Source of the DNA: Candidatus Omnitrophota bacterium
Lineage (GTDB): Bacteria; Omnitrophota; Gorgyraeia; B26-G9
NCBI GenBank assembly: GCA_043826565.1
Contig: JBDRPX010000004.1
Location: forward strand, 10,232-74,231
Reading direction: 5' to 3'
DNA: 64,000 nucleotides
The notes under the pieces: model-generated
Told to the model about the DNA's origin: nothing
Seen by the model: the letters and a program-made list of their open reading frames with translations, nothing else
Databases searched by the model: none
Position numbers and translations under genes: made by a program
In this document: positions 14,025 to 64,000 of the stretch, piece after piece
How the letters are laid out: each line of letters starts with the position of its first letter
Position numbering within the stretch: position 1 is the stretch's first letter

Positions 14025-14099
14025 GCGGCGGTAATTCAGTGGTAGAATGTCTGCTTGCCAAGCAGAATGTCGAGGGTTCGACCCCCTTCCGCCGCTCCA
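14025..14099 (+). tRNA. tRNA-Gly (anticodon GCC), CCA encoded
   Basis: Acceptor GCGGCGG/CCGCCGC, anticodon loop TTGCCAA, T-loop TTCGACC. Confidence 0.85.
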
Positions 14100-19608: not shown

Positions 19609-19654
19609 TTTTGATTATTCGATAATTATTGGGAACAGAAAGGTAGGTGGATCC

Positions 19655-43201: not shown

Positions 43202-43212
43202 AAGGACGAAAA

Positions 43213-45376: not shown

Positions 45377-45377
45377 A

Positions 45378-46433: not shown

Positions 46434-47098
46434 TTAAACGTTTATACACCTGGTTTCATAAAGCAGTTGCTAAGGATGAAGAAAAAGATCAGCCTTCGGG
46501 CGGGGTTTGGCCGCATGTAGTCAGAAAAGGGGTTTTAAATATCTGCCAGGCAACCCAGGGGGCAGTCATGGAAGTCGGCTGCGGGGAGGGATTATTTATC
46601 CGCCAACTGGCATTAAATAATCCAGGACTGAAAATTACCGGAGTGGATAATAATAGTGTTAAATTAGAAGAAGCAAAACGTAAATGCCATGAGCTTGGGC
46701 TGGTCAATGTTAACATAATATTTGCTGACGCAGCCAATATACCTGTTTCTGCGGAATGTTTTAATTGCGTTGTGTGTATAAATGTTTTGCTCAATTTACC
46801 TTCGATAGAAGTAGTCCGAAGCATTATAAAAGAAATATCCCGGGTTTGCGCGTGCGGAGGAAAGTTTGTGTTTGATTTTCGTAATTCCGCTAATCCGGTG
46901 GTTAATTTAAAATACAGGCTGGCTCCTTATTATGATGAAACAGTTAAAAGAGACAGTTTGCCGTTAAATACATATTCATCCAAGCAGATCACGGCGCTGT
47001 TATCGGAAAACAAGTTTAAGGTCATTAGCCGGAAATATCTGGGATTTCCTTATAATCGGTTAGCGCCGATTATTATAATTGAGGCGGAAAAATGTTAA
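46430..47098 (+). CDS. class I SAM-dependent methyltransferase
   Basis: Motif I VMEVGCGEG. Confidence 0.6.
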   Translation: MIKRLYTWFHKAVAKDEEKDQPSGGVWPHVVRKGVLNICQATQGAVMEVGCGEGLFIRQLALNNPGLKITGVDNNSVKLEEAKRKCHELGLVNVNIIFADAANIPVSAECFNCVVCINVLLNLPSIEVVRSIIKEISRVCACGGKFVFDFRNSANPVVNLKYRLAPYYDETVKRDSLPLNTYSSKQITALLSENKFKVISRKYLGFPYNRLAPIIIIEAEKC

Positions 47099-49880: not shown

Positions 49881-50687
49881 TTAGTATTGAATCAAACTGC
49901 CTTGCTGGCGTGCTTTTTTTAAAGCATAGCCAAAGGCAAAGAAGCTTAAAGGGGACAGGATAATCGAGAAGATCAAAAGGATCGCGCATTCTGAGGAGAG
50001 CTGGCTCAAAGTGTAGTTTTTATATACGGCTAGTTCAATTGCTCTGATCGCGTGAGTGATCGGTAAAAACTGGGCTATTGTCTGCAAAAACTTAGGCATT
50101 ACCGCGATTGGGAAAAATACTCCGCCTAATAACCCTTCCAGATTATTGATCACCCAGGCAATGGGATTACCGCGCTTGAAGACAATGATAAAACAAGCCG
50201 AGAGTATGCCTAAACTGCTGAAGCAGATGATCGTCAGTATTAAGATTATGATCGCCGAAAGGATATTTACATTCCCAAAATCTATATGGAATAAAAATAC
50301 ACCTAAGATAAAATATATACATATATTAAATGTGGCAAAGATGAGATTCCAGCAGGCCATACTGCCTAAGATAATGCCCACGCGGGTGGGAGTTAAAAGA
50401 AGGGTTTCCAAAGTGCCCATGGTCTGTTCCTGGCGGACCTGGTCGGCAAAAGAACCCATGCCCACTCCGATATAGCTGAAAAAGGCCATGCTTAAAAGTA
50501 CATAAGAAAAGTAATTCACCCCGAATTCCTGCAGATGTTTACTTATCCGGCCGCTGAAGAGTTTATCGATAAAAAAATAGGTAAGCAGAAGGACAAAGAC
50601 GCTGAATATATTCAGAAAAAAAGAAAGCTTATAACTGGTTTCAATGAGCAGGTCTTTTTTTATTAAGGCATATAATTTTCTAAACAT
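49881..50687 (-). CDS. ABC-2 type polysaccharide exporter permease (Wzm-like)
   Basis: Six TMs with an ABC-2 membrane profile. It overlaps the ATPase gene start. Confidence 0.7.
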   Translation of the reverse strand: MFRKLYALIKKDLLIETSYKLSFFLNIFSVFVLLLTYFFIDKLFSGRISKHLQEFGVNYFSYVLLSMAFFSYIGVGMGSFADQVRQEQTMGTLETLLLTPTRVGIILGSMACWNLIFATFNICIYFILGVFLFHIDFGNVNILSAIIILILTIICFSSLGILSACFIIVFKRGNPIAWVINNLEGLLGGVFFPIAVMPKFLQTIAQFLPITHAIRAIELAVYKNYTLSQLSSECAILLIFSIILSPLSFFAFGYALKKARQQGSLIQY

Positions 50688-51462
50688 TTTTTGTTAGTTC
50701 CCTATATATATCGGTTAAACCGGCTTTGGGCATTTTAGTTTGCTTCCTTAGTTCTTCAATTGTTCCGTTTCCGCAGAGTTTTCCTTTGTGAAGGATGAAA
50801 AATAAATCACAAAGATCTTCAGCTTCTCCTATATTATGTGTAGCCATAAGAATTGTTTTTCCCTCGTCGGAAAGGTTCTTAATTGTAGTTTTTAAAGTCT
50901 CAGAAGAATTATAATCCAGGCTTTTCATGGGTTCATCTAAAAGCAAAAGGGACGGTTCGTGCAGAAGCGCTCTGATCAGGGAGAGTTTTCTTTTCATGCC
51001 CGTAGAATATGAATCAAAGCGCTGGTTTTGATAGTCAATGTTGAATAACTGAAGGAGCTCGGCTAGCCGTTTTTTTGTTTGAGCCTTATTTAAGCCGTAC
51101 AAAGCGGCGAAAAATTCCAGGTTTTGTAATCCGGAGAGTCTCCAGTAGAAACTGCGGTCGTCATTGGAAACCAGCCCGATATTTGATTTAACAGCGATGT
51201 CATTTGTTTTGACCGAATAATTGTTTACGATAACATTGCCTTCATCAGGAAACACAAGCGTGGAAATTATTTTAAGTAAAGTAGTTTTGCCTGCGCCGTT
51301 TTCTCCGAGTAAACAGGCGATTTTCCCTTGGGGTAAAGAAAAAGATACATTGCTTAATGCGGTTATCCGGGGCATTTCCCGCAATAGAAGCATATCAGTG
51401 ATTGAGGCAGGAGTTTGAAATTGCTTGGTTAAATTTTCTATGCTTAATATTGTATTATTCAT
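50680..51462 (-). CDS. ABC transporter ATP-binding protein (Wzt-like)
   Basis: Walker A GENGAGKTT, signature YSTGMKRKLSL, and Walker B LLLDEP. Start taken at the ATG at 51462 (the TTG at 51498 is also possible). Confidence 0.8.
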   Translation of the reverse strand: MNNTILSIENLTKQFQTPASITDMLLLREMPRITALSNVSFSLPQGKIACLLGENGAGKTTLLKIISTLVFPDEGNVIVNNYSVKTNDIAVKSNIGLVSNDDRSFYWRLSGLQNLEFFAALYGLNKAQTKKRLAELLQLFNIDYQNQRFDSYSTGMKRKLSLIRALLHEPSLLLLDEPMKSLDYNSSETLKTTIKNLSDEGKTILMATHNIGEAEDLCDLFFILHKGKLCGNGTIEELRKQTKMPKAGLTDIYRELTKNV

Positions 51463-51801
51463 GTAGATAAGGTTAACAGATAAGCCTGTTTTCGTCAAGG
51501 TACAAGACAGTCGCTAAGCGCTCAGCTACTGCGTTATTTTTTCGCTTACTTGTGCGACGTGCATTTTGCACGCCTCCGCGTTCGCTCAAAAAAGCCTTGT
51601 ATCTGAGCACTTTTCGACAGCTTGTATGATTCTTTATGGTTTTTGTTTAAGTTATCTGTGTCTTGGGTCTTGCGTCTTGAGTCTATTAATTTTTTCCCTT
51701 GTAAGTGTTTTTATGACTGTGATACAATTAAATAAATAGGGGCGGGGCAAAAATACCGCAGATATTTCATGGAATGGATTATTAAAGACAAGGAGTGGGG
51801 T

Positions 51802-53193
51802 ATGACTATTTATCGCCAAAGTTTATTTTTAGCAGCAGTTGTTATTCTTTCCTTAGTTTTCCTCTGTTTACCTTCTTACGCGCAGGATCCCCAGACTAAA
51901 CCGCCGGAAATTGCCGGAGAGTTTTTCGGCATGCCGGTACCTTCAAGTAATTACTTTTTTGCCAAAAGGGTGATCATGTCTTATGGCGCTAAATGGCGCG
52001 GATCTCCGCAAACCCAGGCAGAACTAGAAGATATGGTTTGGCAGGAGCTTTTATTTTCATTTGAAGCATATCGCCGGGGCATAGAGGTAAGCCAGGAGGA
52101 AATTGGCGAGGAAATCGAAAAAATATTAAAAGCGCAAAAGGCAGAATTCAATTGGCGCTTGGATAAAGAGGAATTTGAAAAATGGGCAAAGGATACTTTG
52201 GGGGTTCCGGTAGATATGTTCATGAATCAAATAGAACATTTGGCTAAGATCGAAAAACTGCGTCAGGAAGTGATCGATAGTATTGAACCGGAAGTTACGG
52301 ATGAGGAAGCTTATCAGAAATTTTTAAATGAGTATAATACTCTTTTGGTGGAATTGATCCAGTTTGATGATCTGGAAAAAGCAAAAGATTTTTATGAAAA
52401 GTCCATTCTGCCGATCGCGGATAATGCTCCGGAGCAGCTTGTTTGGGATGACTTAATTCTATCCGATGAGGCTTCCAAACGGGGAATTAAAGCCGAAGAT
52501 GAAGAGGTGGACAAAGCGGTTTCGGCATTATTGCGGGCCAAAGAAGCCAGGTTTAAGTGGCAAGAAGATAATGAATCGTTTAAAAAATGGATTGAGGAAA
52601 CAACCGGAGAAACCGAAGAAGGGTTTCGTCAGCGTTTTAAAGCTTTTGTAAAGATCGGTAAGCTTATGAACAAGATATCCGCAAAGGAAGAGCCGGAAAT
52701 TAAAGATAAGAAATATAAAAAGTTTCTTAAAAATAATAAGACTTATGCGCAGGCATATGCGGAGTTTTTCGCGGCTTATAAGCCAACAGGCGATGTCCTT
52801 AATTTTGCTTCTTTTGAAGAAGCCTTAGCTTATTATCAGAAGATAGATAGACAGCCGGGGTTCTGGGAAGACCGCAAGAGAGAAAACCCGGATCTATTTA
52901 AACAGCCGGGATTTGTGGCCCTGGATTTTCTGCTGAATATGTGGGGTTTTAAAAAAGAAGACGCTTATAAGATGCTGGATGCGGAAATCGGGGCGTATTA
53001 TCCGCCGTCTCCTATATATAAGGGATATGGTGTGTTTAAGATCCTGAAAATCCGTAAGGCAAAGCCTGAGGAATATGAGGGCCGCAAAGATTATTATGTG
53101 GAAAGGGTAAAATCTATCAAAAAATATGATGGTTTTACCGCGTGGGTCAAAGAGCTTAAAGAACAGGCTGATATAAAAAGATTTATTCAGTAA
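51802..53193 (+). CDS. secreted protein with internal ~100-aa repeats, function unknown
   Basis: Signal peptide ending AQD. Repeated blocks (KWRGSPQTQAELEDMVWQE... / ...RFKWQEDNESFKKWIEE...). RBS AAGGAG. Confidence 0.5.
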   Translation: MTIYRQSLFLAAVVILSLVFLCLPSYAQDPQTKPPEIAGEFFGMPVPSSNYFFAKRVIMSYGAKWRGSPQTQAELEDMVWQELLFSFEAYRRGIEVSQEEIGEEIEKILKAQKAEFNWRLDKEEFEKWAKDTLGVPVDMFMNQIEHLAKIEKLRQEVIDSIEPEVTDEEAYQKFLNEYNTLLVELIQFDDLEKAKDFYEKSILPIADNAPEQLVWDDLILSDEASKRGIKAEDEEVDKAVSALLRAKEARFKWQEDNESFKKWIEETTGETEEGFRQRFKAFVKIGKLMNKISAKEEPEIKDKKYKKFLKNNKTYAQAYAEFFAAYKPTGDVLNFASFEEALAYYQKIDRQPGFWEDRKRENPDLFKQPGFVALDFLLNMWGFKKEDAYKMLDAEIGAYYPPSPIYKGYGVFKILKIRKAKPEEYEGRKDYYVERVKSIKKYDGFTAWVKELKEQADIKRFIQ

Positions 53194-53308: not shown

Positions 53309-53758
53309 ATGGAAGAAATCATTCTGAAGGCTAAAGTTGATCTTTTGTGCAAGCAGCTGCGGGAAACCGGGAGTATTCAGGTATCTGTGTCCGGCAATTC
53401 TATGTTTCCGTTTATGAAAAACGGAGATATGCTGCTGGTTGAGCCGATAAAAATAAAAGATGTTTTTCTCGGGGAAGTAGTAGTTGTCTATGCGCATAAT
53501 AATCTCTACTGCCACAGGGTTGCATTTAAAAATCCTAAATTTATTCAAACAAAAGCAGATGCCTTAGTACTCTGGGATGTTCCGGCAAATCAGGAAGACT
53601 TGATCGGAAAAGTTGTCGGCCGGGTCAAAAAAGGGAACATAATTCGTATTGATAATGGATGGCTGAGGATCGCGGGAATTTTAATATTAGGGTTTTCTTT
53701 TTTGGCCGCGCCCTTATATATCCCTTTACGGATGATAAAAAGGCTATTTAGAAAATGA
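53309..53758 (+). CDS. S24/S26-family (signal-peptidase-like) serine peptidase with C-terminal TM
   Basis: The SGNSMFPFMKNGDMLLV motif is characteristic of the S24/S26 catalytic Ser region. A downstream Lys candidate is present, followed by a hydrophobic C-terminus. Confidence 0.55.
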   Translation: MEEIILKAKVDLLCKQLRETGSIQVSVSGNSMFPFMKNGDMLLVEPIKIKDVFLGEVVVVYAHNNLYCHRVAFKNPKFIQTKADALVLWDVPANQEDLIGKVVGRVKKGNIIRIDNGWLRIAGILILGFSFLAAPLYIPLRMIKRLFRK

Positions 53759-54921
53759 GTACTTCTCTTACGGAAAAGCAGGCGATATTTGATTATTTTG
53801 TATTCACTCTTATCGCGAAACCTTCATTATTTGTCTTGGAAGATTATTCCGAGTTATTAAAATCAATGGACTGGCCTTATTTTTTAGAAAAGGTTTTTCG
53901 CGAGGGTATCTCCGGTTTGATCTTTTACCATGTGCTTAAAACTAAAAATTGCCATATATTTCCTGATGATGTCCGGGAGCAGTTAAGATATGATTATGAG
54001 AACAATCTGGGCCGGAATTTATTTTTAAGTCTTCGGACAATAGAATTCCTGGATTATCTGAATAAAGAAAATATCCGCGTATTGTTACTGCGCGGAGCGG
54101 ATTTTATCGACCGAATCTACCCGGATTACGGAATCCGGGCCATGGGAGATGTGGATATTATTATTGCTGAGGAAGATTTTAAGCGGGCTGAAAAAATATT
54201 CAATACTCTTGGGTATGAGAATTACAAAGGATACCGGTACTTGTTTTTAAAAGATGAGGTTTATATCGATGTTCATCTTGATCTTGCCGGTTATTGGCGA
54301 ATCCCATCACGTTTGCATACGATTAGCATTAAAAATGAAGATGTTTGGCGAGATGCCCAGCCCATAAATGATGTTCGCCCATTGATCCGGAAATTAGGGG
54401 TATATGACGCGATTCTTGCGGCTTGTGTTCATATGCAGGAACATTCGTTTAGCCGGTTGATATGGTTTGTCGATGTTTTGTTTTTGATAAAAAATGAAGG
54501 TGAGGATTTTAACTGGCCGCGGTTATGGGAAAGAGCCCGGCAGTGTAATCTGCATAAATCACTCATGTTTGCGCTTAGTTATTTGCAGGCCCGGGAGCTT
54601 ATAATTATTCCGGAAGATATGCTGCGGAATTTTAAGCAGGTGCCTTTAAATGGGTTTGAGTCAAGGTCCTTGCAGATACTTAGAATTAATAAGCGGGAAT
54701 ATATATCCGGAGAATTACTGTTCTTTTTTTCTCTGGGGACTTTAAAAGAAAAACTTAAATATATTAAAGAAGTACTGTTTATTAAAAAAGAGTTGTTTCC
54801 TTCGGTGCTCCCAAACGCCAATATCTGGAATTATATATGCCGGTTTTTTAGGATAGTATGGTACGGAGTGAGTAAATTATTCGCGGCATTTAAAAATGAA
54901 AACAAATTGATAAGCAGATAA
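53755..54921 (+). CDS. uncharacterised nucleotidyltransferase-family protein (PF14907-like)
   Basis: ~388 aa with the minimal NTase core GDVDIIIAEED. Its neighbourhood (kinase + PqqD) fits families seen in RiPP-like cassettes. Confidence 0.5.
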   Translation: MSTSLTEKQAIFDYFVFTLIAKPSLFVLEDYSELLKSMDWPYFLEKVFREGISGLIFYHVLKTKNCHIFPDDVREQLRYDYENNLGRNLFLSLRTIEFLDYLNKENIRVLLLRGADFIDRIYPDYGIRAMGDVDIIIAEEDFKRAEKIFNTLGYENYKGYRYLFLKDEVYIDVHLDLAGYWRIPSRLHTISIKNEDVWRDAQPINDVRPLIRKLGVYDAILAACVHMQEHSFSRLIWFVDVLFLIKNEGEDFNWPRLWERARQCNLHKSLMFALSYLQARELIIIPEDMLRNFKQVPLNGFESRSLQILRINKREYISGELLFFFSLGTLKEKLKYIKEVLFIKKELFPSVLPNANIWNYICRFFRIVWYGVSKLFAAFKNENKLISR

Positions 54922-54925
54922 GATT

Positions 54926-55762
54926 ATGAGAGAAATATTATTAAACATCGGCGGGATAGCGGTATTAGTTGCTAATGGCAATGAAGAGTTTATTTCTTTG
55001 TTAAAGGATAAATATAAAGATTTTGTCATGGAGTGTTCCGGGCTCGAAAACATCCGGATTGAGATGAATAATAAACGGATTGAAAACGAAACTCCCCGGA
55101 TTACAATTGATAAAGATGAGCAGCAGTATTCGATTATCGGTGATGAGTTCTTGGGCAAGCTGAATATAGAAGATAAAAGATGTGTTGTTTATATGCGAAA
55201 CAATGAGAGTTTGTTTGATACTTTCTTGAGGGTGCTTTTTTCGGTATTACTTGTTTATCAGGAAGGATTTTTGGTGCATGCTTCGGGTATATCCCGGGAG
55301 GGAAAAGGATTTCTTTTTCCCGGAGCTTCCGAACATGGTAAGACAACTACCGCGCGCCGGTTTTGTGAATCGGTGATATTTAGTGATGAACTGGTAATTG
55401 TTAAAAAACAAGATGACGGATTTTACCTTTTCCCTTCGCCGTTTGCCGGAGAATTCGTTGGTAGTAATATGAATGAACCGGCACGATTAGAAAAAGTTTT
55501 TATACTTACCCGGGAACATATCGGCGTAACGGAAAAGGTTAAGGATTTTGAGAGTTTTCTTAGCCTGCTGGAACGTATATTTTTCTTTGCTTCTGACGCG
55601 GTCCTAAATCAGAAGCTTATTGATTTAGCTAAACAATTATGTACAAGAGTTGCTTGTTTTAAAATGAATATAATGGAAGAGAAAAACTTAGAGAGGATTT
55701 TTGATGAAATTTCAAAAGATGATGATCGAGCGCAATGCCCAGGCAGCCTGGCAGGAAATTGA
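54926..55762 (+). CDS. HPr-kinase-C-terminal-domain-like P-loop kinase
   Basis: P-loop GASEHGKTT within an HprK-C-like region (LVHASGISREGKGFLFPGASEHGKTT). There is no HPr kinase N-terminal domain. Confidence 0.55.
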   Translation: MREILLNIGGIAVLVANGNEEFISLLKDKYKDFVMECSGLENIRIEMNNKRIENETPRITIDKDEQQYSIIGDEFLGKLNIEDKRCVVYMRNNESLFDTFLRVLFSVLLVYQEGFLVHASGISREGKGFLFPGASEHGKTTTARRFCESVIFSDELVIVKKQDDGFYLFPSPFAGEFVGSNMNEPARLEKVFILTREHIGVTEKVKDFESFLSLLERIFFFASDAVLNQKLIDLAKQLCTRVACFKMNIMEEKNLERIFDEISKDDDRAQCPGSLAGN

Positions 55763-56021
55763 AGATAATGTTGTGGTTGTTACTCCGGCTAATAGTAAAG
55801 TTCATGTTTTATCCGGTATCGGCGGGCGAGTTTGGCAGCTGCTGGAAGAGGAAAAAACCGGACAACAGCTTAGCGAGATTATAATTGAGGAATTTGATGT
55901 GGGGATAGAGCAGGTCCAAGCGGATGTGGATGGTTTTTTGCAGGAGCTTTTGGAGAAAGAGATTATAAAAGTACAGAGGACAGAGGACAGAAAACAGAGG
56001 ACAGAAGAAACTACGTGCTAA
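55704..56021 (+). CDS. PqqD-family peptide-binding chaperone (RiPP recognition element-like)
   Basis: ~100 aa with the PqqD signature AAWQEIEDNVVVVTP...VHVLSGIGGRVWQLL...EF.V...V..DV..FLQEL. It overlaps the end of the kinase gene. Confidence 0.6.
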   Translation: MKFQKMMIERNAQAAWQEIEDNVVVVTPANSKVHVLSGIGGRVWQLLEEEKTGQQLSEIIIEEFDVGIEQVQADVDGFLQELLEKEIIKVQRTEDRKQRTEETTC

Positions 56022-56088
56022 AATTTTTTTCAGACTTCTGATCTCTGACATCGGATTTCTGACTTCTTGTTTTCCTTCGGAGAAGCGT
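55975..56088. repeat. quasi-palindrome (cagaggacagaggacagaaaacagaggacagaag ... cagacttctgatctctgacatcggatttctgacttct)
   Basis: The left arm lies inside the 3' end of the PqqD-like CDS (encoding QRTEDRKQRTEE). The right arm is intergenic before the rSAM gene. Confidence 0.55.
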
Positions 56089-57096
56089 ATGACTATTTGG
56101 GATGAGGTCGGCAAGGCTATAAAAGAGAAGTATATTCCGATTACTATGGTTCTGGAAGCTACCCGGCAATGTAATCTGCAGTGCTGCCATTGCTATAATA
56201 TTAAGGACAATGTGCAGCTGAGTTTTGATCAGATAAAAGACATTGGCGGGCAGCTGCGCCGGGCCGGATGTTTGTTTCTGGTGCTTACCGGAGGCGAAGT
56301 GTTTACAAAACCGGATTTTCTGGACATTGCCGGATATTTACGTAAGCTGGGGTTTGATTTAAAAGTTTTTACTAACGGTACTCTGATTACTTCACAAATG
56401 GTGGAAAGAATAAAAGATCTTGCTTTTAGTGAGGTGGGAATAAGTATTCAGGGAATCAATGCTCAAACGCATGATCGAATTACGGGAAATCCGGGATCTT
56501 TTGCCAAAGCTTTATCGGCAGTAAAGATACTTAAGCAGGCTAAGGTTCCCGTAGGTATAAAAACTACTTTAATGAAAACTAATTTTAGTGAATATAAAGA
56601 AATCATGGAATTAGCGGACAATCTGGGAGTTACCTATGTTATTGATCCGGTTGTTTCTCCGCGGGATGATGGATCAAAAGATGTTTTATCCTGCCGGTTG
56701 AGTGATGGCCAGCTTGAAGAGTTTTATCGGGAACAATTTTCTAAAATTGATTCTGTTTCTGCAGAAGTCAATAATGAGGATATTTGTGAGGCGGGTAAAA
56801 TATTCGGCAGTATTTCGGTTTTAGGTGATGTGTATCCCTGTATTCAAATTCCTTTGAAATGCGGTAATGTTTTCCAGCAGGAGTTTAAAGAGATCTGGGA
56901 TAATAGTGATATTTTAAATAAAATGCGAACAGTAAAACTTTGTGATATTGAAGAGTGTGCGACTTGTAAGATAGCTTATGGCTGTACCCGATGCCCGGGG
57001 CTGGCTTATTTAGAGGACGGAGATTTGTTTGGGCCGTCTTCGGTGGCGTGTATGAACGCGCGTATCTATGAGAAAATTAAAGAGTTAAAAATATAA
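56089..57096 (+). CDS. radical SAM enzyme with C-terminal SPASM-like Cys-rich domain
   Basis: CNLQCCHC (C-x3-C-x2-C) near the N-terminus, and a C-terminal CDIEECATCKIAYGCTRCPG...VACMNA Cys cluster. Confidence 0.8.
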   Translation: MTIWDEVGKAIKEKYIPITMVLEATRQCNLQCCHCYNIKDNVQLSFDQIKDIGGQLRRAGCLFLVLTGGEVFTKPDFLDIAGYLRKLGFDLKVFTNGTLITSQMVERIKDLAFSEVGISIQGINAQTHDRITGNPGSFAKALSAVKILKQAKVPVGIKTTLMKTNFSEYKEIMELADNLGVTYVIDPVVSPRDDGSKDVLSCRLSDGQLEEFYREQFSKIDSVSAEVNNEDICEAGKIFGSISVLGDVYPCIQIPLKCGNVFQQEFKEIWDNSDILNKMRTVKLCDIEECATCKIAYGCTRCPGLAYLEDGDLFGPSSVACMNARIYEKIKELKI

Positions 57097-57100
57097 TATC

Positions 57101-59056
57101 ATGGGATTAAAAATTAAAAATAATATTGGCAATAAACTTCTCGTTCAGATGATTATTGTGGTAATGATCATCGCCGCGGGATTCTATTCAATTATCAGCA
57201 TGCAGACTAAGGAGCTTGAGAAAAGAATATTCGATAAAGCTAAATTGTTTTCCACGATCCTGGGAGTGCATCTGGATAGAATAATCAGTGATAATATTTC
57301 CGCCTATAATAGCCTGCAAATGATTGTTAAGGGGATTGCTAAAACACATGAATCAGTAGAAGATATCCGGATTATTGCTCCGGAATTTATTGTCTTAGCT
57401 TCAAGTTCTCCGGAATATGTATGGCAGGCGGTAGATTCCGAGTATGTCGAAGTGATAAAAGATGTTGCCGCGAATATGAAGCCCCGGTCTTTGCTTAAGA
57501 CGGAATTAGGTAAAGACCTGGTTATCCATTTTATGCCTCTTTTGTCTTTGGATAAAGAAAAGCGGCTGATCGGAGTTATGCAGATCGCAGCGCGGTTTCC
57601 CTCACAGCAGGCGCAGACAATGGCTTATTTGCGCAGCAATAAGTCTGTTTATTATAAGGAGGAAGCCGCTGGATTTGCCCAGCAGGTATCTAAAGATCTT
57701 AAGAGCGCTTTGGATGAAGTGGATAAGAATTTTAGATATTTGGATGCTCTTTTGGCGAGTATGTTAAAGGATGATGAAATTCAGGATGTAAAACTATTTT
57801 CACATGATTTGCGTTTATTAGGATCCGGCAGTTCCGGACGCAAAACGCCGTTTATTTCTCAAAGAGAAATTGCTTTATATGAAAAAGCTGTTTTAGGTGA
57901 AGAAACATTGAACCTTAAGACCCCGGGGAAAAATGAGCAGCGCGAATTAGTCAGCCCGCTGTATTTAACACAAAATAATAATCGGGAGATCATTGGCGCG
58001 GTGGGAATCACAGTTTCCCTGATCAGGATAAATGCTTTAGTAGAGGCCCGGAGAAAAAATATTCTGGTGATGAGCCTGGTTATTATTGCCGCGTTTTGTT
58101 TGTTGATCGGTGTGTTTTTCAGAAAGACGGTTATGCTTCCGATAGATAAACTCATGGCCATGACTCAGCGGATAGGAAAGGGAAACTTCTCTCAGAAAGT
58201 AGTGATCAACTCTAATGATGAAATCGGCAGTCTGGCCCAGGCTTTAAACCAGATGTCGGATGAGTTGTTTAAATCAAAACAGGAAATAGAAAGATGGAAT
58301 CTTACGCTCAAAGATCGTGTGGTTGAGGTTACTAAGGAACTTCAGCAAAAGCAGGCCCAGCTTATGGAATCCGAAAGAATGGCGTCTTTGGGGGTGCTGT
58401 CGAGCGGGATTGCTCATGAAATAAATAATCCCTTGGGAATTATTCTCGGGCACGCGCAAATGCTGTTAAAGGAATTGAACACAAAAGGTAATATCCAGAA
58501 TGCCCAGGAAGCGGCGGTTCTTTTAAAGACCATAGAAGAATATACCAAGCGGTGTTCGTATATCGTAAATAGCCTCCTGGAATTTTCCCGAAAAAAAGAA
58601 TTGCAGTTTCAGTCTGTTTCGGTGACGGCGGCAATAGAGAATGCTTTAATGTTTACGAGCAGCCGTTTGGGGCAAAAGGGAATAAATGTAACCAAGGAAT
58701 ACAGTAAAAATATGCCTCAAATTTCCGCGGACTCAATACATCTGGAGCAGGTGTTTATTAATATAATTCTTAATGCCGAACAAAGTATGTCCGGAGGCGG
58801 CCAGCTGAAAGTAACCGCGGATATGAAAAAAAATGATATTTTGATCAGCTTTTGTGATACCGGACAGGGAATAGCTGAGGATGATCTTAAGAAAATATTT
58901 GATCCGTTTTTTACCACGCGTCAGCCGGGAGAAGGATCCGGATTAGGGCTGGCGATTAGTTATGGAATTATTAAGGCGCATAGCGGAGATATAATTGTGG
59001 AAAGTAAAAAAGGCCAAGGCACAAAAGTAATGGTGAAACTGCCAATAAAAAAATAA
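57101..59056 (+). CDS. sensor histidine kinase (TM - periplasmic/sensor region - HAMP - HisKA - HATPase_c)
   Basis: H-box GIAHEINNPLG and the G1/G2 boxes (DTGQGI, GSGLGLAIS). Confidence 0.8.
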   Translation: MGLKIKNNIGNKLLVQMIIVVMIIAAGFYSIISMQTKELEKRIFDKAKLFSTILGVHLDRIISDNISAYNSLQMIVKGIAKTHESVEDIRIIAPEFIVLASSSPEYVWQAVDSEYVEVIKDVAANMKPRSLLKTELGKDLVIHFMPLLSLDKEKRLIGVMQIAARFPSQQAQTMAYLRSNKSVYYKEEAAGFAQQVSKDLKSALDEVDKNFRYLDALLASMLKDDEIQDVKLFSHDLRLLGSGSSGRKTPFISQREIALYEKAVLGEETLNLKTPGKNEQRELVSPLYLTQNNNREIIGAVGITVSLIRINALVEARRKNILVMSLVIIAAFCLLIGVFFRKTVMLPIDKLMAMTQRIGKGNFSQKVVINSNDEIGSLAQALNQMSDELFKSKQEIERWNLTLKDRVVEVTKELQQKQAQLMESERMASLGVLSSGIAHEINNPLGIILGHAQMLLKELNTKGNIQNAQEAAVLLKTIEEYTKRCSYIVNSLLEFSRKKELQFQSVSVTAAIENALMFTSSRLGQKGINVTKEYSKNMPQISADSIHLEQVFINIILNAEQSMSGGGQLKVTADMKKNDILISFCDTGQGIAEDDLKKIFDPFFTTRQPGEGSGLGLAISYGIIKAHSGDIIVESKKGQGTKVMVKLPIKK

Positions 59057-59108: not shown

Positions 59109-60521
59109 ATGCACAAAGAGCATATTTTAGTTGTCGATGATGAGCATGGAATGCGGGAATATCTAAAAAAACTTTTAACGGATAATAATTATTTCGTATC
59201 CCTTGCCGCTAATGGCGCGGAGGCATTAGAGCAGATAAAAAATGATGAGCCGGCTGTGGCCTTAATGGATTTTAAAATGCCGAATATGAACGGATTGGAA
59301 CTGTTGGAAAAATTTAAACAGATGCATCCGCATATAACGGTGATCATGATGACTGCTTACGGCACGGTGGAAAACGCGATCAAAGCTATGAAGCTGGGCG
59401 CGTATGATTATCTGAATAAACCATTTGAAATGGAAGAAATACTATTGGTTATCGCTAAGGCTTTAGAGAAAAGGCGTCTGGAAAAAGAAAACATTTCTTT
59501 GCGTAAGCAGATTAAAAAGACATATACTTTTGAGGATATTGTTTCCGGAAATAATCAAATGCAGCAAATTTTTGAAATTGTAAAAAAAGTGGCCGGGGCA
59601 AGAAGTACGGTGCTTATTGAAGGTGAAACCGGAACCGGTAAAGAACTGGTTGCCCGGGCTATTCATAACCTAAGCGAGCGGAAAGACAAGCCTTTTATTG
59701 CGGTTGACTGCAGTGCGCTTACGGAAAGTCTTTTAGAAAGTGAATTATTCGGCCATGTGCGGGGCGCGTTTACCGGAGCAACTAGAGATAAAAAAGGGCT
59801 TTTTGAAACTGCTGACGCCGGAACGATATTTTTGGATGAAGTCGGGCATATGTCTTTGGAGATTCAGTCAAAATTATTACGCGTATTGCAGGAGGGGGAA
59901 ATTAAGCGTGTCGGCCAGGCTACTCCGCATAAAGTGGATGTCCGCCTTATTGTTGCGGCTAATGAGCGTTTGGAAAACAGGATAAAAGCCGGTAAGTTCC
60001 GGCAGGACCTTTATTACCGGATCAATGTCGTGCCTGTATATCTGCCGCCGCTTAGAGAGCGCAGTGAAGATGTGCCTCTTTTGATTGAATATTTTATTGG
60101 GAAGTATAATAGTATTGAAGGCAAACAGTTAAAGGATATATCTCTGGATGCGTTGAAAGTTTTAATGGATTATTGCTGGCCGGGGAATGTGCGGGAACTG
60201 GAAAATCTTATTCATCGCGCGGTGGTTATGGAGGTAGGGCCAATGATCACTCTTAATGATTTGCCCGCAAACATAAGAATGCCGGAGACCGCGGAAAAGC
60301 GGGAGGAATTGCCGCGGATAAAAAATTTCCGCCAGGCCAAGCGAAAAATCGTAGAGTCATTTGAAAAAAGGTTTTTAACGGAAGCCTTGACGAGGCATAA
60401 CGGCAATGTGAGTAAAGCGGCGAGAGAAATGGGATTGGATCGGAGGAATTTGCAAAGGAAATTTAAAGATTGTGATATAGATTCTGATAAATTTAGAGTT
60501 AAGGGAAGACCTCTCACCTAA
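59109..60521 (+). CDS. sigma-54-dependent response regulator (REC-AAA+-HTH, NtrC family)
   Basis: REC Asp pocket (VVDDE...D), Walker A GETGTGKE, the GAFTGA motif, and a C-terminal Fis-type HTH. Confidence 0.9.
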   Translation: MHKEHILVVDDEHGMREYLKKLLTDNNYFVSLAANGAEALEQIKNDEPAVALMDFKMPNMNGLELLEKFKQMHPHITVIMMTAYGTVENAIKAMKLGAYDYLNKPFEMEEILLVIAKALEKRRLEKENISLRKQIKKTYTFEDIVSGNNQMQQIFEIVKKVAGARSTVLIEGETGTGKELVARAIHNLSERKDKPFIAVDCSALTESLLESELFGHVRGAFTGATRDKKGLFETADAGTIFLDEVGHMSLEIQSKLLRVLQEGEIKRVGQATPHKVDVRLIVAANERLENRIKAGKFRQDLYYRINVVPVYLPPLRERSEDVPLLIEYFIGKYNSIEGKQLKDISLDALKVLMDYCWPGNVRELENLIHRAVVMEVGPMITLNDLPANIRMPETAEKREELPRIKNFRQAKRKIVESFEKRFLTEALTRHNGNVSKAAREMGLDRRNLQRKFKDCDIDSDKFRVKGRPLT

Positions 60522-60565: not shown

Positions 60566-61039
60566 ATGAAGTGTCCGAAGTGTGATAGTGCTCTAAGGAC
60601 GGCTAAGCATAGTGATGTTACCATTGATTTCTGTGAATTATGTTATGGAATTTGGCTGGATAAAGGGGAGTTGGAAAGAATAGCTGCTTATGAAAAAAAA
60701 GACGCGGCAAAAGCTGTGGAAACCCTGAAGAACTTGCTTAAGGCGGAAAATGAAATTGTTCAGGAGCAGAGTATTTGCTGTCCGCATTGTGAACAACAAA
60801 TGCAGAAAATTAAATTCACCACTAAGGACGGAATTGTTGCCGATAAATGTGCCGGCTGCCAGGGTATTTGGTTTGATAAGGGTGAATTAATATCAATTAC
60901 TGATCATATGGACGGAAAAAAGAATTCTAATCCAGGCCAGAGCAGGGATGTTTCCCTCTTACCCAGCATATTGGCTTTGGGAGGTATCATTGCTTTGTTC
61001 ATTTTATTATTGATTTGGGCTATTAGTTATTTTAAATAA
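60566..61039 (+). CDS. membrane-anchored protein with two TFIIB-type zinc ribbons (zf-TFIIB/PF13453-like)
   Basis: Two copies of the pattern CPxC...C.LC.GIW.DKGEL, followed by a C-terminal TM helix. Confidence 0.6.
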   Translation: MKCPKCDSALRTAKHSDVTIDFCELCYGIWLDKGELERIAAYEKKDAAKAVETLKNLLKAENEIVQEQSICCPHCEQQMQKIKFTTKDGIVADKCAGCQGIWFDKGELISITDHMDGKKNSNPGQSRDVSLLPSILALGGIIALFILLLIWAISYFK

Positions 61040-61186: not shown

Positions 61187-61202
61187 TGGCATATTGATTG
61201 CT
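61187..61202 (+). promoter_or_regulatory. sigma-54 (-24/-12) promoter TGGCAT-N5-TTGCT
   Basis: Matches the TGGCAC-N5-TTGCW consensus with the invariant GG and GC. It is 46 bp upstream of the ATG at 61248 and downstream of the sigma-54 activator gene. Confidence 0.6.
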
Positions 61203-61247: not shown

Positions 61248-64000
61248 ATGTCAGCTAAAACCCTAAAAATCTTCCTGTTTTTTACCCTTATTTTTTGTGT
61301 TGGAGTAGTACCTGCGCAAGCCGGTCTTAAGGTGCAAAAAGGTGAGACGACTATTGTAAACGGTCAAACATCAGTAACAGTTAATATTACAGCAGTTAGT
61401 GATCTTTCCCGCGCAATGCTGCTGATGTGGTCATCTGGTGATAGCGGTACAGACTGGGGAGAAGCCTGGCAGGCAACCGGATATCTTTCTTCTACCAGCC
61501 AGATAGCTTTTGAGCGGGTGGGCACACGGGATGATTGTCAGATCGGATATTATGTTGTTGAAGCAGAAAATCAGGAATTCGAAGTTATTGACCGGGGATT
61601 AATGGTTATCGGGGCTGAGAATACGATGCAGGATACTGATATTTCTCAGGCGATTGACCAGGCTCATACCGCTATAATCGCAAGCTCAATGTTAGGAGAT
61701 GCCACCGGCAATGATGATGAAGTGCATAAAGGTTTTGCCACGGTACATTTTGTGGATAATGATACTATTCGCGCGACTCGAGGCGCTTCCGGAACATATT
61801 CCTGTGATGTGCGATATCAGGTGGTACAGTGGCTGGATATAATCAATGTGCAAAGTAAAGAATTTAGTTCATCTATTAGTACTACGGAACTTACCCAATC
61901 TATTGATACTCCTGTAACTGCAACGCGTACCTGGTTATATGCTACAGCCAGCCATTCCGGAGGCAGCGGTATTTCTCAGGTTGCGGTGGATACCTATCTT
62001 AAAGACGGATCAACTGTTGGATTTAGAAGGCGTCAAGGAACTTATAGTGACGCGATTCGCTGGTGGGCCATAGAATTTCCCTCAGATGTTTCTGTCCAGC
62101 ACGTATCTGGGGCAGCGGCAACCGGTGATCTTACTGTGGTAACACCGATCAGTGCGGTGACGATTGCTAATTCCTGGTCCGATGTTTATAATAATTGTAA
62201 TGGTACCGGACAGGCATTACCTCGTCAGGCTTTTTATACTCAGATTACATCAACAACTCAGGTTACCAATACCCGGTATTACAGCGGGCAGGCTGCGGAT
62301 TTATCCGTGGAAGTGATTGATACCGCAGGTTGGACTGTTACAGTGCCTACGGTAAATATTACGGTAACTCCTAATATTACCAAGTCACAAACCGCGGGAA
62401 ACCTGGAAATTAAACTGGTATTCAGTGAAAGTATGAACCCTTCCGTATCTCCGGTAGTGATGTATGACCCGGCGGGAACGACCGGAGCGCAGTCATGTAC
62501 CGGAGGGACATGGTCAACAACGACTTATTCTAATGATACTTATACGGTATATAATGATGCGGCGATCGATGAGGCTACCGGCGACGGCATTGCAGCTGTC
62601 AGTGTCAGCGGAGCAAAGAGCGTGATTGGGGTTATTATGACCCCGGATACTAATGATACCTTTGTCATCGATACTGCAGCGCCGGCAAATCCGGGCGCGC
62701 CGTGTAATGCCTGGGAAAGTTCAGCGAAAATAACTTCGCTGACCGATGATACCTGGCAGGAAAACGATGATACACCTTATTTTGAATGGGCCGGAGCAAG
62801 TGACAGCGGCGGTTCCGGAGTAAGCGGTTATTCTGTTTATTGGGGGAATGATCCAAATGGTGTACCGGCGGCAACTCAGGAACAGACAGCAGCTAATTTT
62901 GATGTGACCGCAGCCACAGGAGACGGGGTATTTTTCTTAAGAGTAAGGACATTTGATAATGCGTCCAATTACAGTGACCCGGTGACCTTATTTACATTTC
63001 GTTATGATGCCGGGGCACCAACAAATCCGAATGTGCCTTGTGATGGCTGGCAGACAAGTTTAAAGTTAGATGCAATCAGTAATGATACCTGGCAGGAAAG
63101 TGACGATACTCCCTATTTTGAATGGACCGGGGCCAATGACGCTGGCGGTTCCGGAGTAAGCGGTTATTCTGTTTACTGGGGAACTGATCCCGGAGGAGAG
63201 CCCGGGATTACGCAGGCACAGGGAAACGCCGATTATGAAGTAACTACTCCAACCGGTGACGGGACTTATTATTTAAGGGTGAGAACATTTGATAATGTGA
63301 ATCATTACAGCGCGCCGGTAACTTTATTTACTTTTCATTATGATGCGACTGCGCCGTCTAATCCCAACACTCCCTGTAATGCCTGGGATTCTTCTTCTAA
63401 AAATACAGTGGTATCTGACAATATTCCGCAAGGCGCGGACGATACTCCTTATTTTGAATGGACCGGAGCCAATGACGGCAATGGGCAGGGAGTAAGCGGA
63501 TATTCTGTATATTTAGGAACGAATTCCGAAGGCGAGCCTGGAACTACTCAGGAGCAGTCCGGGGCCAGTTATGATGTAACGGCTTCAACGGGTGCGGGAA
63601 CATTTTATCTGCGGGTGCGGACTTTTGACAGTTTGGGGCACTACAGTGAACCAACAACTTTGTTTACATTTATCTATGATGAAACCAAACCGACAATGAG
63701 TATCGGCGTGCTTCCTGATCCTGCCGGACATCGGGCAGTGGGGGAATTGGCATTTATCCTGATTTTTTCCGAGTCAATGGATACCGGAACAATACCGGTA
63801 GTAACCTATGACCCGGCCGGGTCAACTGGTTTGCAAAGTGCGGCTACTAATGGTTCCTGGTCGACGACTAACAATAATAATGACACATATACCGTATATA
63901 ACAGCAGTGCTATCAATAGTTCAACGGGTGACGGCATTGCGGCTATAACCATTAGCGCGGCTAAAGATATTGCCGGCAATACAATGCTTGATGATACTAA
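61248..64000 (+). CDS. giant secreted repeat protein (3' end beyond window); at least three ~105-aa tandem Fn3/Ig-like repeats
   Basis: My own translation shows a continuous frame from the ATG at 61248 to the window end. Signal peptide ...VVPAQA. Repeats APxNPxxPCxxW...DDTPYFEWxGAxDxGGSGVSGYSVYWG...RVRTFDNxxxYSxPxTLFTFxYDA occur three times. Confidence 0.7.
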   Translation, partial: MSAKTLKIFLFFTLIFCVGVVPAQAGLKVQKGETTIVNGQTSVTVNITAVSDLSRAMLLMWSSGDSGTDWGEAWQATGYLSSTSQIAFERVGTRDDCQIGYYVVEAENQEFEVIDRGLMVIGAENTMQDTDISQAIDQAHTAIIASSMLGDATGNDDEVHKGFATVHFVDNDTIRATRGASGTYSCDVRYQVVQWLDIINVQSKEFSSSISTTELTQSIDTPVTATRTWLYATASHSGGSGISQVAVDTYLKDGSTVGFRRRQGTYSDAIRWWAIEFPSDVSVQHVSGAAATGDLTVVTPISAVTIANSWSDVYNNCNGTGQALPRQAFYTQITSTTQVTNTRYYSGQAADLSVEVIDTAGWTVTVPTVNITVTPNITKSQTAGNLEIKLVFSESMNPSVSPVVMYDPAGTTGAQSCTGGTWSTTTYSNDTYTVYNDAAIDEATGDGIAAVSVSGAKSVIGVIMTPDTNDTFVIDTAAPANPGAPCNAWESSAKITSLTDDTWQENDDTPYFEWAGASDSGGSGVSGYSVYWGNDPNGVPAATQEQTAANFDVTAATGDGVFFLRVRTFDNASNYSDPVTLFTFRYDAGAPTNPNVPCDGWQTSLKLDAISNDTWQESDDTPYFEWTGANDAGGSGVSGYSVYWGTDPGGEPGITQAQGNADYEVTTPTGDGTYYLRVRTFDNVNHYSAPVTLFTFHYDATAPSNPNTPCNAWDSSSKNTVVSDNIPQGADDTPYFEWTGANDGNGQGVSGYSVYLGTNSEGEPGTTQEQSGASYDVTASTGAGTFYLRVRTFDSLGHYSEPTTLFTFIYDETKPTMSIGVLPDPAGHRAVGELAFILIFSESMDTGTIPVVTYDPAGSTGLQSAATNGSWSTTNNNNDTYTVYNSSAINSSTGDGIAAITISAAKDIAGNTMLDDT

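Follow-up and report, generated by a model that had tools for sequence, protein, structure and literature searches.

A conserved radical SAM cassette from an Omnitrophota bacterium as putative machinery for maturing a ribosomally made peptide

The stretch of 64,000 nucleotides analyzed here (hereafter, the window) encodes a five-gene cassette that, judging from its sequence, is a real and uncharacterized system of radical-SAM RiPP machinery, the chemistry of which we infer. Logic read from relatives that retain a precursor gene suggests, with somewhat better than even confidence, that the five genes serve to mature a ribosomally made peptide. The functional unit is larger than five genes and probably also includes a divergent ABC-2 exporter, a SurA_N-like protein, a histidine kinase/sigma-54 regulator pair, and a giant gene.

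The window comes from Candidatus Omnitrophota bacterium (GCA_043826565.1, contig JBDRPX010000004.1, positions 10,232 to 74,231). An ORF check of the window recovered all five genes on the + strand within 53309-57096, where an earlier note had placed them, in the following order:

53309-53758, + strand: S26-type (SipW/Sec11-like) peptidase, 149 aa (Pfam Peptidase_S24, 29.6 bits, cutoff 23.3)
53755-54921, + strand: NTP_transf_5 (PF14907) nucleotidyltransferase, 388 aa (Pfam, 144.7 bits)
54926..55762, + strand: ScmC-family P-loop kinase, predicted PEPCK/HprK fold (PF27840, motifs, predicted fold)
55704-56021 (ORF from 55701), + strand: PqqD-family RiPP recognition element, a discrete protein (Pfam PF05402, 54.8 bits)
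56089-57096, + strand: radical SAM/SPASM enzyme, 335 aa (Pfam Radical_SAM, 81.9 bits; SPASM, 34.7 bits)

Successive genes are spaced by a 4-nt overlap, a 4-nt gap, an overlap of ~59 nt, and a 67-nt gap, and a histidine kinase gene starts 4 nt past the radical SAM stop. The five genes are co-directional and overlapping or near-abutting, much as the earlier note had described, an arrangement far beyond chance. Four of the five family assignments made in that note (PqqD, Radical_SAM with SPASM, NTP_transf_5, and Peptidase_S24) scored above HMM cutoffs, whereas its call of an HprK-like kinase stands on other evidence. The kinase did not reach the cutoff of the Pfam Hpr_kinase_C model, and it scored 20-29 bits against NCBIfam lasso-associated HprK-related families with cutoffs of 125-200. 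The call is borne out by its precomputed Pfam family, PF27840 (ScmC), by conserved kinase motifs (P-loop GxSxxGKT, ‘SDE’, and one His and one Arg that are invariant), and by a predicted PEPCK/HprK fold.

The call of an S24/S26 membrane peptidase stood with its Pfam match and could be refined: the peptidase is specifically S26B, a Ser/His homolog of ER/archaeal-type signal peptidases that is membrane-anchored at its C-terminus, where a hydrophobic anchor is present. It scored 44.9 bits against TIGR02228 (archaeal/ER-type signal peptidase I), and its homolog in locus L006 exceeded the cutoff of that model (72.6 versus 51.85). Residues G29, S31, M32, P34, G55, H69, R70, and D84 are invariant in 15 cassette homologs. 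The true start of PqqD, judging from homologs, is probably the ATG at 55704; its top NCBIfam match was lasso_PqqD_Bac (44.6 bits, under the cutoff of 80). The radical SAM enzyme carries a CX3CX2C motif (C28, C32, and C35) and seven further Cys of a full seven-Cys SPASM domain that are conserved in 30 radical SAM homologs. Among solved structures, the nearest in sequence is that of the thioether-forming SkfB (E 2.8e-20). No NCBIfam model reached its cutoff with this enzyme, the best partial matches being the heme-pathway enzymes AhbD and NirJ.

Evidence for a peptide substrate comes from outside the window’s clade, where 21 of 24 cassette loci have an adjacent ORF of 44-79 aa and 13 of the 24 encode NTP_transf_5. 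A database search yielded 108 precursor-like peptides, all unnamed and without a Pfam match. Every one of them has a [YWF]xxP leader motif resembling the lasso YxxP, a C-terminal Ser, and 2-4 Cys; the fuller motif Y..P.[LIVM] is present in 94, and a fixed spacing of 18 residues separates the Tyr from the first Cys in 95. Ala occupies position -3 of the first Cys in 95 of the peptides and position -1 in 83; type I signal peptidases follow a -3/-1 small-residue rule. Each precursor feature pairs with one cassette enzyme, and this adjacent family, with features that match every enzyme, strongly reinforces the RiPP reading proposed in the earlier note.

The window’s clade comprised 16 distinct loci. 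The cassette order is the same in 11 other distinct clade loci, whose radical SAM enzymes are 45-64% identical to that of the window, and the ScmC-PqqD-rSAM core was detected in at least 10 phylum-level lineages; gene-neighborhood conservation, which the earlier note had put forward as a check, is thereby evident both within the clade and across phyla. The cassette belongs to a widespread, unnamed family. Three further clade loci (L015 and L047/L048) keep the set with an insertion between the PqqD and radical SAM genes. Locus L044 encodes only PqqD, the radical SAM enzyme, the histidine kinase, and the regulator; because it lacks the nucleotidyltransferase, the peptidase, and the ScmC kinase, the PqqD-radical SAM pair can work without those three.

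No precursor gene adjoins the cassette in the window’s own lineage. Profile HMM, regex, and conserved small-ORF searches revealed no precursor-like ORF in the whole 64-kb window, the 16 clade loci likewise yielded none (profile HMM and regex in 13; called-gene tables for L046-L048), and the locus-tag prefix of this genome, ABII88, does not occur among the 108 database peptides. The earlier note’s statement that no precursor gene lies nearby was correct for both the window and the clade. This absence (0 of 16 loci), together with the loss of three genes in L044 and the insertions in L015, L047, and L048, is what would be expected if the cassette were an evolutionary remnant whose enzymes fell out of use when the precursor was lost. 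We consider this very improbable: catalytic motifs are intact despite clade identities of 44-64% for the radical SAM enzyme and about 31-37% for the kinase, and the genes remain in the same order, closely spaced or overlapping, conservation that is not expected of unused genes. Because all catalytic motifs are kept, the most likely substrate of the clade enzymes is a peptide whose gene lies at some other place in the genome.

The following features flank the cassette:

49881..51498, - strand: ABC-2 type transporter, permease (49881-50687) and ATPase (50680-51498) (NCBIfam DrrA/DrrB-type matches)
51769..53193, + strand: SurA_N-like secreted protein, 474 aa, signal peptide, no Cys (Pfam SurA_N_2 and SurA_N_3, below cutoff)
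57101..59056, + strand: HAMP histidine kinase with a large extracytoplasmic domain (NCBIfam and Pfam matches)
59109..60521, + strand: sigma-54-dependent response regulator (Pfam Response_reg, Sigma54_activat, and HTH_8)
61187..61202, + strand: sigma-54 promoter TGGCAT-N5-TTGCT, 46 nt upstream of the giant gene
61248..64000, + strand: 5' part of a giant secreted protein with a signal peptide, running past the window end (sequence read)

The transporter genes are transcribed divergently from the cassette. A closely related ABC-2 pair (E 1e-99 to 1e-135) adjoins the cassette in clade relatives, and also in the precursor-bearing Omnitrophota loci L026 and L029-L032 as well as in L007 and L034, suggesting that the transporter is the probable exporter of the product. 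Orthologs of the SurA_N-like protein (52-60% identity) are encoded immediately before the peptidase gene in L001-L003, L010, L012, and L013, and a 446-aa gene occupies the corresponding position in L046; the gene is a clade-specific companion. Downstream, 11 other distinct clade loci have a gene for a homologous histidine kinase (E 1e-157 to 1e-247 in the loci scored) right after the radical SAM gene, and the position of the regulator is conserved in the clade. The cassette appears to be co-transcribed or tightly coupled with this pair. The promoter is the sole match in the window at up to one mismatch, with exact matches at the corresponding place in L001, L002, L003, L010, and L043, and from it the pair would drive the giant surface protein. 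The 917 aa of that protein within the window had no Pfam match; they are strongly homologous (520-1187 bits) to proteins of 5,800-6,100 aa that follow the cassette in L002, L003, L010, L046, and L047. The clade layout is cassette, histidine kinase, sigma-54 regulator, sigma-54 promoter, and finally a secreted protein that is large and in most cases giant. Relatives in other phyla keep the precursor next to the cassette, which in the window’s lineage is linked instead to sensory genes and the gene of a giant surface protein.

This layout could indicate that the clade cassette came to act on a protein encoded within the module, the giant or the SurA_N-like protein. The SipW-type peptidase would then be a signal peptidase dedicated to that protein, in the role that SipW has for TasA and TapA, and the other enzymes would modify the protein before export. 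Consistent with such a switch, the large secreted protein occurs together with the cassette and the kinase/regulator pair in 10 distinct loci regardless of the upstream genes (EPS in the window, Ast in L046), all 16 clade loci lack a precursor, the giant protein has an A-x-A signal-peptide site (VPAQA|G), and the precursor-bearing loci L005 and L006 also adjoin large beta-propeller or beta-helix secreted proteins. However, giant N-termini are not conserved and have no YxxP-like motif, the SurA_N-like protein has neither Cys nor a terminal Ser and is missing from several clade loci, the 1285-aa protein of L044 does not end in Ser, and known PqqD-dependent radical SAM enzymes act on leader-bearing peptides. 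We therefore regard a protein substrate as unlikely.

The earlier note also placed the cassette between an EPS locus and a sigma-54 module. The sigma-54 module proved conserved, but the EPS link is incidental: in L046 the complete module adjoins arginine-catabolism (Ast) genes, with no EPS genes. The same locus argues against a role in a polysaccharide or nucleotide-sugar pathway, with a glycan or lipid-linked intermediate as substrate. In the window, as in several relatives, genes for a DegT aminotransferase, GT9, a methyltransferase, and a B12-radical SAM protein are found upstream; sugars are conceivable substrates for PF14907 and PEPCK-like kinases, and the transporter resembles polysaccharide exporters. 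Yet the PqqD recognition element is always present, and cassettes in other phyla adjoin a conserved peptide with features that match the enzymes, which leaves little room for a glycan pathway.

For a peptide substrate, the order of events might be as follows. The discrete PqqD would bind the leader via its lasso-like Y-x-x-P-x-[LIVM] motif, and the radical SAM/SPASM enzyme is proposed to cross-link the Cys-containing core at two invariant Cys; as to the type of cross-link, our guess is a thioether, most likely of the sactipeptide or ranthipeptide type. By analogy with paeninodin-type lasso peptides, the ScmC-family kinase is proposed to phosphorylate the invariant C-terminal Ser, and, as for pseudomycoidin, the PF14907 nucleotidyltransferase to decorate the phospho-Ser with a sugar or nucleotide. 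HPr-kinase homologs phosphorylate the C-terminal Ser of linear lasso precursors, after which a nucleotidyltransferase, sometimes fused to the leader protease, glycosylates the Ser phosphate (PMC8498205); this fusion parallels the peptidase-nucleotidyltransferase fusions identified in L002, L017, and L043. The membrane-anchored SipW-type enzyme, a candidate leader peptidase, would then cut after Ala-x-Ala, just ahead of the first Cys, and the neighboring ABC-2 transporter would export the product, a leader-cleaved, Cys-cross-linked peptide with a phosphorylated and possibly further decorated terminal Ser.

Phosphorylated and phosphoglycosylated lasso clusters (paeninodin, pseudomycoidin, and proteobacterial kinase-containing clusters) share with the cassette or its relatives’ precursors a discrete PqqD-type protein, a Y-x-x-P-x-L-type leader motif, an HPr-kinase-fold enzyme paired with a C-terminal Ser that is invariant, a nucleotidyltransferase sometimes fused to a leader protease, and an ABC exporter. 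In contrast, the cassette has no lasso cyclase or B2 transglutaminase-type protease, its core would be modified by a radical SAM/SPASM enzyme and its leader cut by an S26-type peptidase, the cores of relatives have 2-4 Cys, and the window kinase is distant (20-24 bits against a cutoff of 200). The earlier note pointed to a database-defined cassette of HprK-related kinase, PqqD, and nucleotidyltransferase; of such defined cassettes, the one nearest to the window’s is SynChlorMet (ScmC, ScmD, ScmE, and ScmF; NCBIfam TIGR04248-04251; PF27840), and not HPr-rel-A, although the curated cutoffs of neither were reached. An operon of ScmC, PqqD, and a PqqE-like rSAM/SPASM enzyme is common to both systems, whereas the window has one radical SAM gene rather than two, adds the S26 peptidase and PF14907 nucleotidyltransferase, and scored 28.7 of 125 (ScmC), 29.7 of 100 (ScmD), and 109 of 400 (ScmE). 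Locus L045, with two tandem radical SAM genes, PqqD, and weaker ScmC-like and NTP_transf_5 matches, recalls the SynChlorMet architecture. To our knowledge, the SCM precursor is described as unidentified in the TIGRFAMs text.

Sactipeptide and ranthipeptide maturases (SkfB, AlbA, and CteB-type) likewise combine CX3CX2C with a full SPASM domain, depend on a recognition element, and act on Cys-containing precursors, whereas the cassette’s recognition element is a separate protein and identity is low; we know of no kinase and nucleotidyltransferase tailoring in these classes. Mycofactocin (MftA-F) resembles the cassette in its discrete PqqD-like chaperone, SPASM radical SAM enzyme, peptidase, later glycosyl decoration, and chemistry at the precursor C-terminus. 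MftC aligned full length with the window radical SAM enzyme at 119 bits, well short of the required 265. The two systems have unrelated precursor families, MftD and MftE homologs are absent, and the cassette peptidase is of the signal-peptidase type. Finally, the tapA-sipW-tasA operon of Bacillus subtilis, like the cassette, encodes an ER-type Ser/His signal peptidase beside a secreted surface or matrix protein, and the L006 cassette peptidase matches the SipW model weakly. The cassette peptidase, however, has a C-terminal rather than an N-terminal anchor, and in relatives it adjoins a small leader-bearing peptide instead of a Sec substrate.

Five open reading frames on the + strand at 53309-57096 were recovered exactly as an earlier note on this DNA had described them. 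These frames (hereafter the cassette) and their neighbors are as follows.

49881-51498, - strand: ABC-2 pair
51769-53193, + strand: SurA_N-like protein, 474 aa
53309-57096, + strand: cassette of five genes, encoding an S26 peptidase, an NTP_transf_5 nucleotidyltransferase, an ScmC-like kinase, a PqqD protein, and a radical SAM/SPASM enzyme
57101-59056: histidine kinase
59109-60521: sigma-54 response regulator
60566-61039: 157-aa protein with two zinc ribbons of the TFIIB type (PF13453) and a transmembrane segment at the C-terminus
61248-64000: 5' part of a gene for a giant secreted protein

The junctions between the cassette genes comprise, in gene order, a 4-nt overlap, a 4-nt gap, an overlap of ~59 nt (taking the ATG at 55704 as the PqqD start, which its homologs suggest), and a 67-nt gap. 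The histidine kinase gene begins 4 nt past the stop codon of the radical SAM gene.

Profile searches bore out the domain assignments proposed in the earlier note, with PqqD (PF05402; 54.8 bits versus a cutoff of 23.4), Radical_SAM (81.9 bits) and SPASM (34.7 bits) on one protein, NTP_transf_5 (PF14907; 144.7 bits versus 31.2, covering profile positions 2-245 of 249), and Peptidase_S24 on the first gene product (29.6 bits) all above their Pfam gathering scores. The proposed HprK-like kinase had no match in the local Pfam copy, whereas a predicted HprK/PEPCK fold and a Walker A motif with a downstream acidic pair were identified, and a public protein collection places it in a new Pfam family, PF27840, named ScmC. 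Its NCBIfam matches were weak (ScmC, HprK-related kinase B, and HprK-related kinase A; 20-29 bits versus cutoffs of 125-200), and a sequence-only search of the PDB returned generic P-loop matches only. A word-indexed search with the kinase recovered nothing except the kinase itself, and a genome scan with the single sequence had no matches, whereas a scan with a 12-sequence alignment succeeded. The ScmC-like kinase family comprises 4221 cluster representatives at E ≤ 1e-3 and 724 at E ≤ 1e-10.

The cassette peptidase is not LexA-like; its best curated matches were signal peptidase I of the archaeal/ER type. It scored 44.9 against the TIGR02228 equivalog cutoff of 51.85, while the corresponding peptidase of a Stahlbacteria locus (L006) passed this model at 72.6 and also touched the SipW model. 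Eight residues are invariant among 15 cassette homologs (G29, S31, M32, P34, G55, H69, R70, and D84) and include a Ser nucleophile box (GxSMxP), a His general base (HR[VIL]), and a conserved Asp. These residues correspond to the Ser/His arrangement of the SipW/Sec11 subfamily (S26B). The hydrophobic segment is C-terminal, and the protein has no N-terminal anchor.

In the radical SAM enzyme, the CX3CX2C motif (C28, C32, and C35) and seven additional Cys (C233, C251, C290, C293, C299, C302, and C321) are conserved in 30 homologs, and the latter constitute a full SPASM domain. None of the NCBIfam models reached its cutoff with this enzyme. Matches extended over the full length for the maturases of GeoRSP (120 bits) and mycofactocin (119 bits) and were split into two stretches for WgkB (125 bits) and ScmE (109 bits); the best partial matches were to AhbD and NirJ. 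The closest solved structure by sequence is that of SkfB, which forms thioethers.

Orthologs of the radical SAM enzyme were numerous (44-64% identity) and mostly from Omnitrophota. Homologous loci were collected through these orthologs and through the genome scan with the kinase alignment, and were annotated using phmmer with the window proteins as queries. The gene-neighborhood comparison for which the earlier note had called separated these loci into two groups, comprising 16 loci of the window's own clade and 24 loci outside of it. The outside loci were from Brocadiia, Stahlbacteria, Elusimicrobia, other Omnitrophota, Methylomirabilales/NC10, Rokubacteria, Coriobacteriia, Dehalococcoidia, Eubacteriales, and unclassified MAGs. 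All retain ScmC, PqqD, and the radical SAM enzyme, and the peptidase (10/24), nucleotidyltransferase (13/24), and ABC-2 pair (7/24) are present in some.

A small precursor ORF lies directly beside the enzymes in 21 of the 24 outside loci, usually just 3' of the radical SAM gene. When the public protein collection was searched with a profile of 18 of these ORFs, 108 precursor peptides (44-79 aa) were retrieved; those with a name are all annotated as ‘hypothetical protein’ and none contains a Pfam domain, nor did the precursor ORFs match any NCBIfam model. A C-terminal Ser and a leader [YWF]xxP motif are present in all 108, with the form Y..P.[LIVM] in 94, and all have two to four Cys. The first Cys after the leader Tyr stands at a distance of exactly 18 residues in 95/108, and it is preceded by Ala at -3 in 95/108 and at -1 in 83/108. 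Counted from this Cys to the C-terminus, the precursors have a median of 20 residues, and a typical one reads ...KKPYEKPQIVSEEVFETLALA/CGK...C...RS.

These features resemble those of characterized systems. Y-x-x-P-x-L is the motif by which lasso leaders are recognized by PqqD-type B1 proteins, and the best curated match of the window PqqD was the lasso PqqD of Bacillota. Ala-x-Ala followed by cleavage is the classical rule of type I signal peptidases. The combination seen in the cassette relatives, of two invariant Cys with a recognition element and a SPASM radical SAM enzyme, is the pattern of sactipeptides and ranthipeptides. The invariant C-terminal Ser matches the residue that HPr-kinase homologs phosphorylate in linear lasso precursors (PMC8498205). 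In pseudomycoidin a nucleotidyltransferase glycosylates that Ser phosphate, and in some cases the lasso nucleotidyltransferase and the leader protease form a fusion (PMC8498205). The Ser ends of all 108 peptides, together with this lasso precedent, point to the C-terminal Ser as the putative substrate of the ScmC-like kinase.

Because each precursor feature has a matching enzyme, we infer, from homology and from the co-variation of gene content with peptide features, the following series of steps. PqqD would bind the leader, the radical SAM/SPASM enzyme would cross-link Cys, the ScmC-like kinase would phosphorylate the terminal Ser, and the nucleotidyltransferase would decorate the phosphate. 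The peptidase would then remove the leader at the membrane, with export through the ABC-2 pair.

Sixteen distinct loci make up the clade (the window, L001, L002, L003, L009, L010, L012-L015, L017, L043, L044, L046, L047, and L048). Their usual order is the ABC-2 pair on the opposite strand, the SurA_N-like gene, the peptidase, nucleotidyltransferase, ScmC-like kinase, PqqD, and radical SAM genes, and then, 3' of the latter, genes for a HAMP histidine kinase, a sigma-54 response regulator, and a very large secreted protein. The module formed by the cassette and these three 3' genes does not depend on its upstream context, which consists of EPS genes in the window versus arginine-catabolism genes in L046. 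Since L046 has the module without EPS genes, we rejected membership of the cassette in the EPS pathway.

Four variants of the clade arrangement show the tie of the cassette to signaling. L044 retains only PqqD, the radical SAM enzyme, the kinase, and the regulator. In L047 (3349-9597; equivalent in L048 and L015), a 6.8-kb signaling island encoding a PAS histidine kinase, a PilZ protein, a CBS-PAS kinase, and six single-domain receiver proteins lies between PqqD and the radical SAM gene. In L009 (7757-8851) and L013 (7702-8793), a protein of ~363 aa, which ends in an RpoN-box-like motif (ISRRT[IV].KY[RK]KE) and is a candidate for a truncated sigma-54-like factor specific to the module, is encoded between the peptidase and the nucleotidyltransferase. 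The latter two are fused in L002, L017, and L043. A gap of the same size is present in L014 at the position of the L009/L013 insert.

An exact sigma-54 promoter (TGGCAY-N5-TTGCT) closely precedes the gene for the large protein, both in the window (at 61187) and in L001, L002, L003, L010, and L043; scans for sigma-70 promoters and terminators yielded matches at chance level. The large secreted proteins are 5,800-6,800 aa in L001, L002, L003, L046, and L047/L048 and 1,285 aa in L044. The N-terminal 917 aa of the window giant are homologous to the giants of L002, L003, L010, L046, and L047 (520-1187 bits), and the gene is orthologous among clade relatives, at 5,800-6,100 aa where N-termini match. 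Across the giants, N-termini are poorly conserved, and the domains are Golvesin_C, Beta-prop_ACSF4, DUF2341, or AF_1625_C. The 157-aa zinc-ribbon protein encoded between the regulator and the giant was not found at the matching position in relatives. Outside the clade, the precursor-bearing cassettes of L005 (11957-14971) and L006 (1395-8466) adjoin large secreted beta-propeller or beta-helix proteins, and that of L006 also adjoins a 1281-aa TPR-GAF sigma-54 activator. Such neighbors hint that the association with big surface proteins and with sigma-54 is older than the window's clade.

The earlier note had seen no precursor gene nearby, and this held for the 64-kb window and the 16 clade loci in small-ORF, regex, and profile HMM screens (L046-L048 were judged from gene tables only, and in clade loci with an 18-20-kb giant gene the screens covered DNA no farther than that gene). 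A motif regex was applied, six-frame translations were searched with profile HMMs built from 3 and later from 20 sequences, small ORFs were compared all versus all, and intergenic ORFs and the regulator-giant gaps were inspected. The same screens recovered every precursor of the control loci. The locus-tag prefix of this genome is carried by none of the 108 database precursors. Three small ORFs (67, 89, and 105 aa) occupy a 1.1-kb gap in the window (8240-9262) that is otherwise poor in genes; two of them are rich in Cys or Lys, and an internal duplication, KAGVKRE.G.LY..DK.GD.SRAKMAR, is present in one. None is related to the precursor family.

Every catalytic motif is kept despite divergence to 44-64% (radical SAM) and ~31-37% (kinase) identity, which argues that the cassette enzymes are in use. 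The likeliest explanation is that the precursor for the window's cassette is encoded elsewhere in the genome. An alternative is that the clade cassette switched to a protein substrate of its own module. Several observations speak against the candidates for such a substrate: the SurA_N-like protein has no Cys, no terminal Ser, and no precursor-like motif; the giant proteins have N-termini that are not conserved and contain no precursor-like motif; in L044, the last residue of the 1285-aa protein is not Ser; and across all module proteins the C-termini have neither a conserved Ser nor a precursor-like motif. A further alternative is that the peptide is a signal sensed by the co-encoded histidine kinase. 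In its complete form, a tailored peptide encoded elsewhere would be exported and sensed by the co-transcribed kinase, which would switch on the giant surface protein by way of sigma-54, or, as a variant, the enzymes would modify the giant directly; we consider this unlikely. If true, the peptide-signal reading would describe a RiPP-based autoinduction circuit that controls a giant adhesin or predation protein.

The literature that we examined on Omnitrophota giant genes makes no mention of a link between these genes and a peptide-maturation operon. If the chemistry proposed here is true, such an operon would be tied in Omnitrophota to how the notable giant genes of the phylum are regulated or matured. 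The cassette relatives would then define an undescribed class of RiPP in which leader recognition of the lasso type and phospho-Ser tailoring at the C-terminus are joined to cross-linking by a radical SAM enzyme and to a leader protease that resembles signal peptidases. Cluster representatives of the ScmC-like kinase family number in the thousands in uncultured phyla, and the precursors are candidate substrates for the long-orphan ScmC/SynChlorMet-type cassettes. With concrete precursor sequences available, the system is directly testable by heterologous expression.

Several features of the window lie outside the module. In the EPS locus, an AsnB-like amidotransferase (34813-36693) has the N-terminus MSGICGF, and the sole NCBIfam match of a PGA_cap protein (40729-41772) was the lasso C-terminal Trp epimerase MslH (90 versus 700). 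Both probably have EPS functions, although they echo lasso-tailoring families. Genes for a B12-binding radical SAM protein, a GT2, an AMP-dependent ligase of the DVU_1553 family, a GT9, and a methyltransferase of the DVU_1556 family follow in a row (41762-47098), and the two DVU_155x matches suggest a conserved, unnamed sub-cassette for glycoconjugate modification. Two further features are listed below; the second is preceded by a 556-aa ORF with no family match.

12097-14099: four tRNA genes in two pairs, Arg-TCG and Lys-CTT, then Leu-TAG and Gly-GCC
19532-22222: 896-aa ORF with C-terminal TPR repeats, in the stretch where AT skew (0.40) and GC skew (0.33) are more extreme than anywhere else in the window

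With regard to lasso clusters, the earlier note had observed that a cyclase and a B2 protease are lacking. Neither is among the cassette genes, and we therefore rejected the cassette as a lasso cluster. No match to a B2 transglutaminase-type leader protease was detected among the 42 window ORFs scanned. The sole Asn-synthase homolog, the EPS-locus protein at 34813-36693, lies 17 kb upstream, had a weak, partial match to the lasso cyclase model (106.5 versus a cutoff of 525), and scored better as AsnB.

The window also falls below the cutoffs of SynChlorMet (ScmC 28.7/125, ScmD 29.7/100, ScmE 109.4/400, and ScmF 86.3/400), a system with two radical SAM/SPASM genes versus one in the window, although the kinase meets ScmC at the broader level of PF27840. 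A metagenome scan with the radical SAM protein recovered a single distant locus with two such genes (L045, 604-5830). They are in tandem, recalling SynChlorMet architecture, and are accompanied by PqqD and by weaker matches to ScmC-like (opposite strand) and NTP_transf_5 proteins; this locus has no clear precursor. HPr-rel-A scores were likewise below cutoffs (TIGR04352 20.1/200 and TIGR04353 15.8/35), and no curated cutoff of GeoRSP or mycofactocin was reached. Full-text searches of the available literature (SynChlorMet, ScmC, PF14907, and HPr kinase with SPASM or RiPP) returned no description of this system.

Of the features of a generic radical SAM/SPASM RiPP system, the window has CX3CX2C with a seven-Cys SPASM domain and PqqD but not an in-cluster precursor, which is a property of 21 of the 24 outside loci and of none in the clade. 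We regard the cassette as a case of RiPP maturation in which a recognition element accompanies a radical SAM/SPASM enzyme. It belongs to neither the phosphorylated lasso nor the radical-SAM thioether families. Rather, by analogy with both, it appears to work like a hybrid that joins the leader, recognition, kinase, and nucleotidyltransferase logic of phosphorylated lasso peptides to the core chemistry of radical-SAM thioether peptides.
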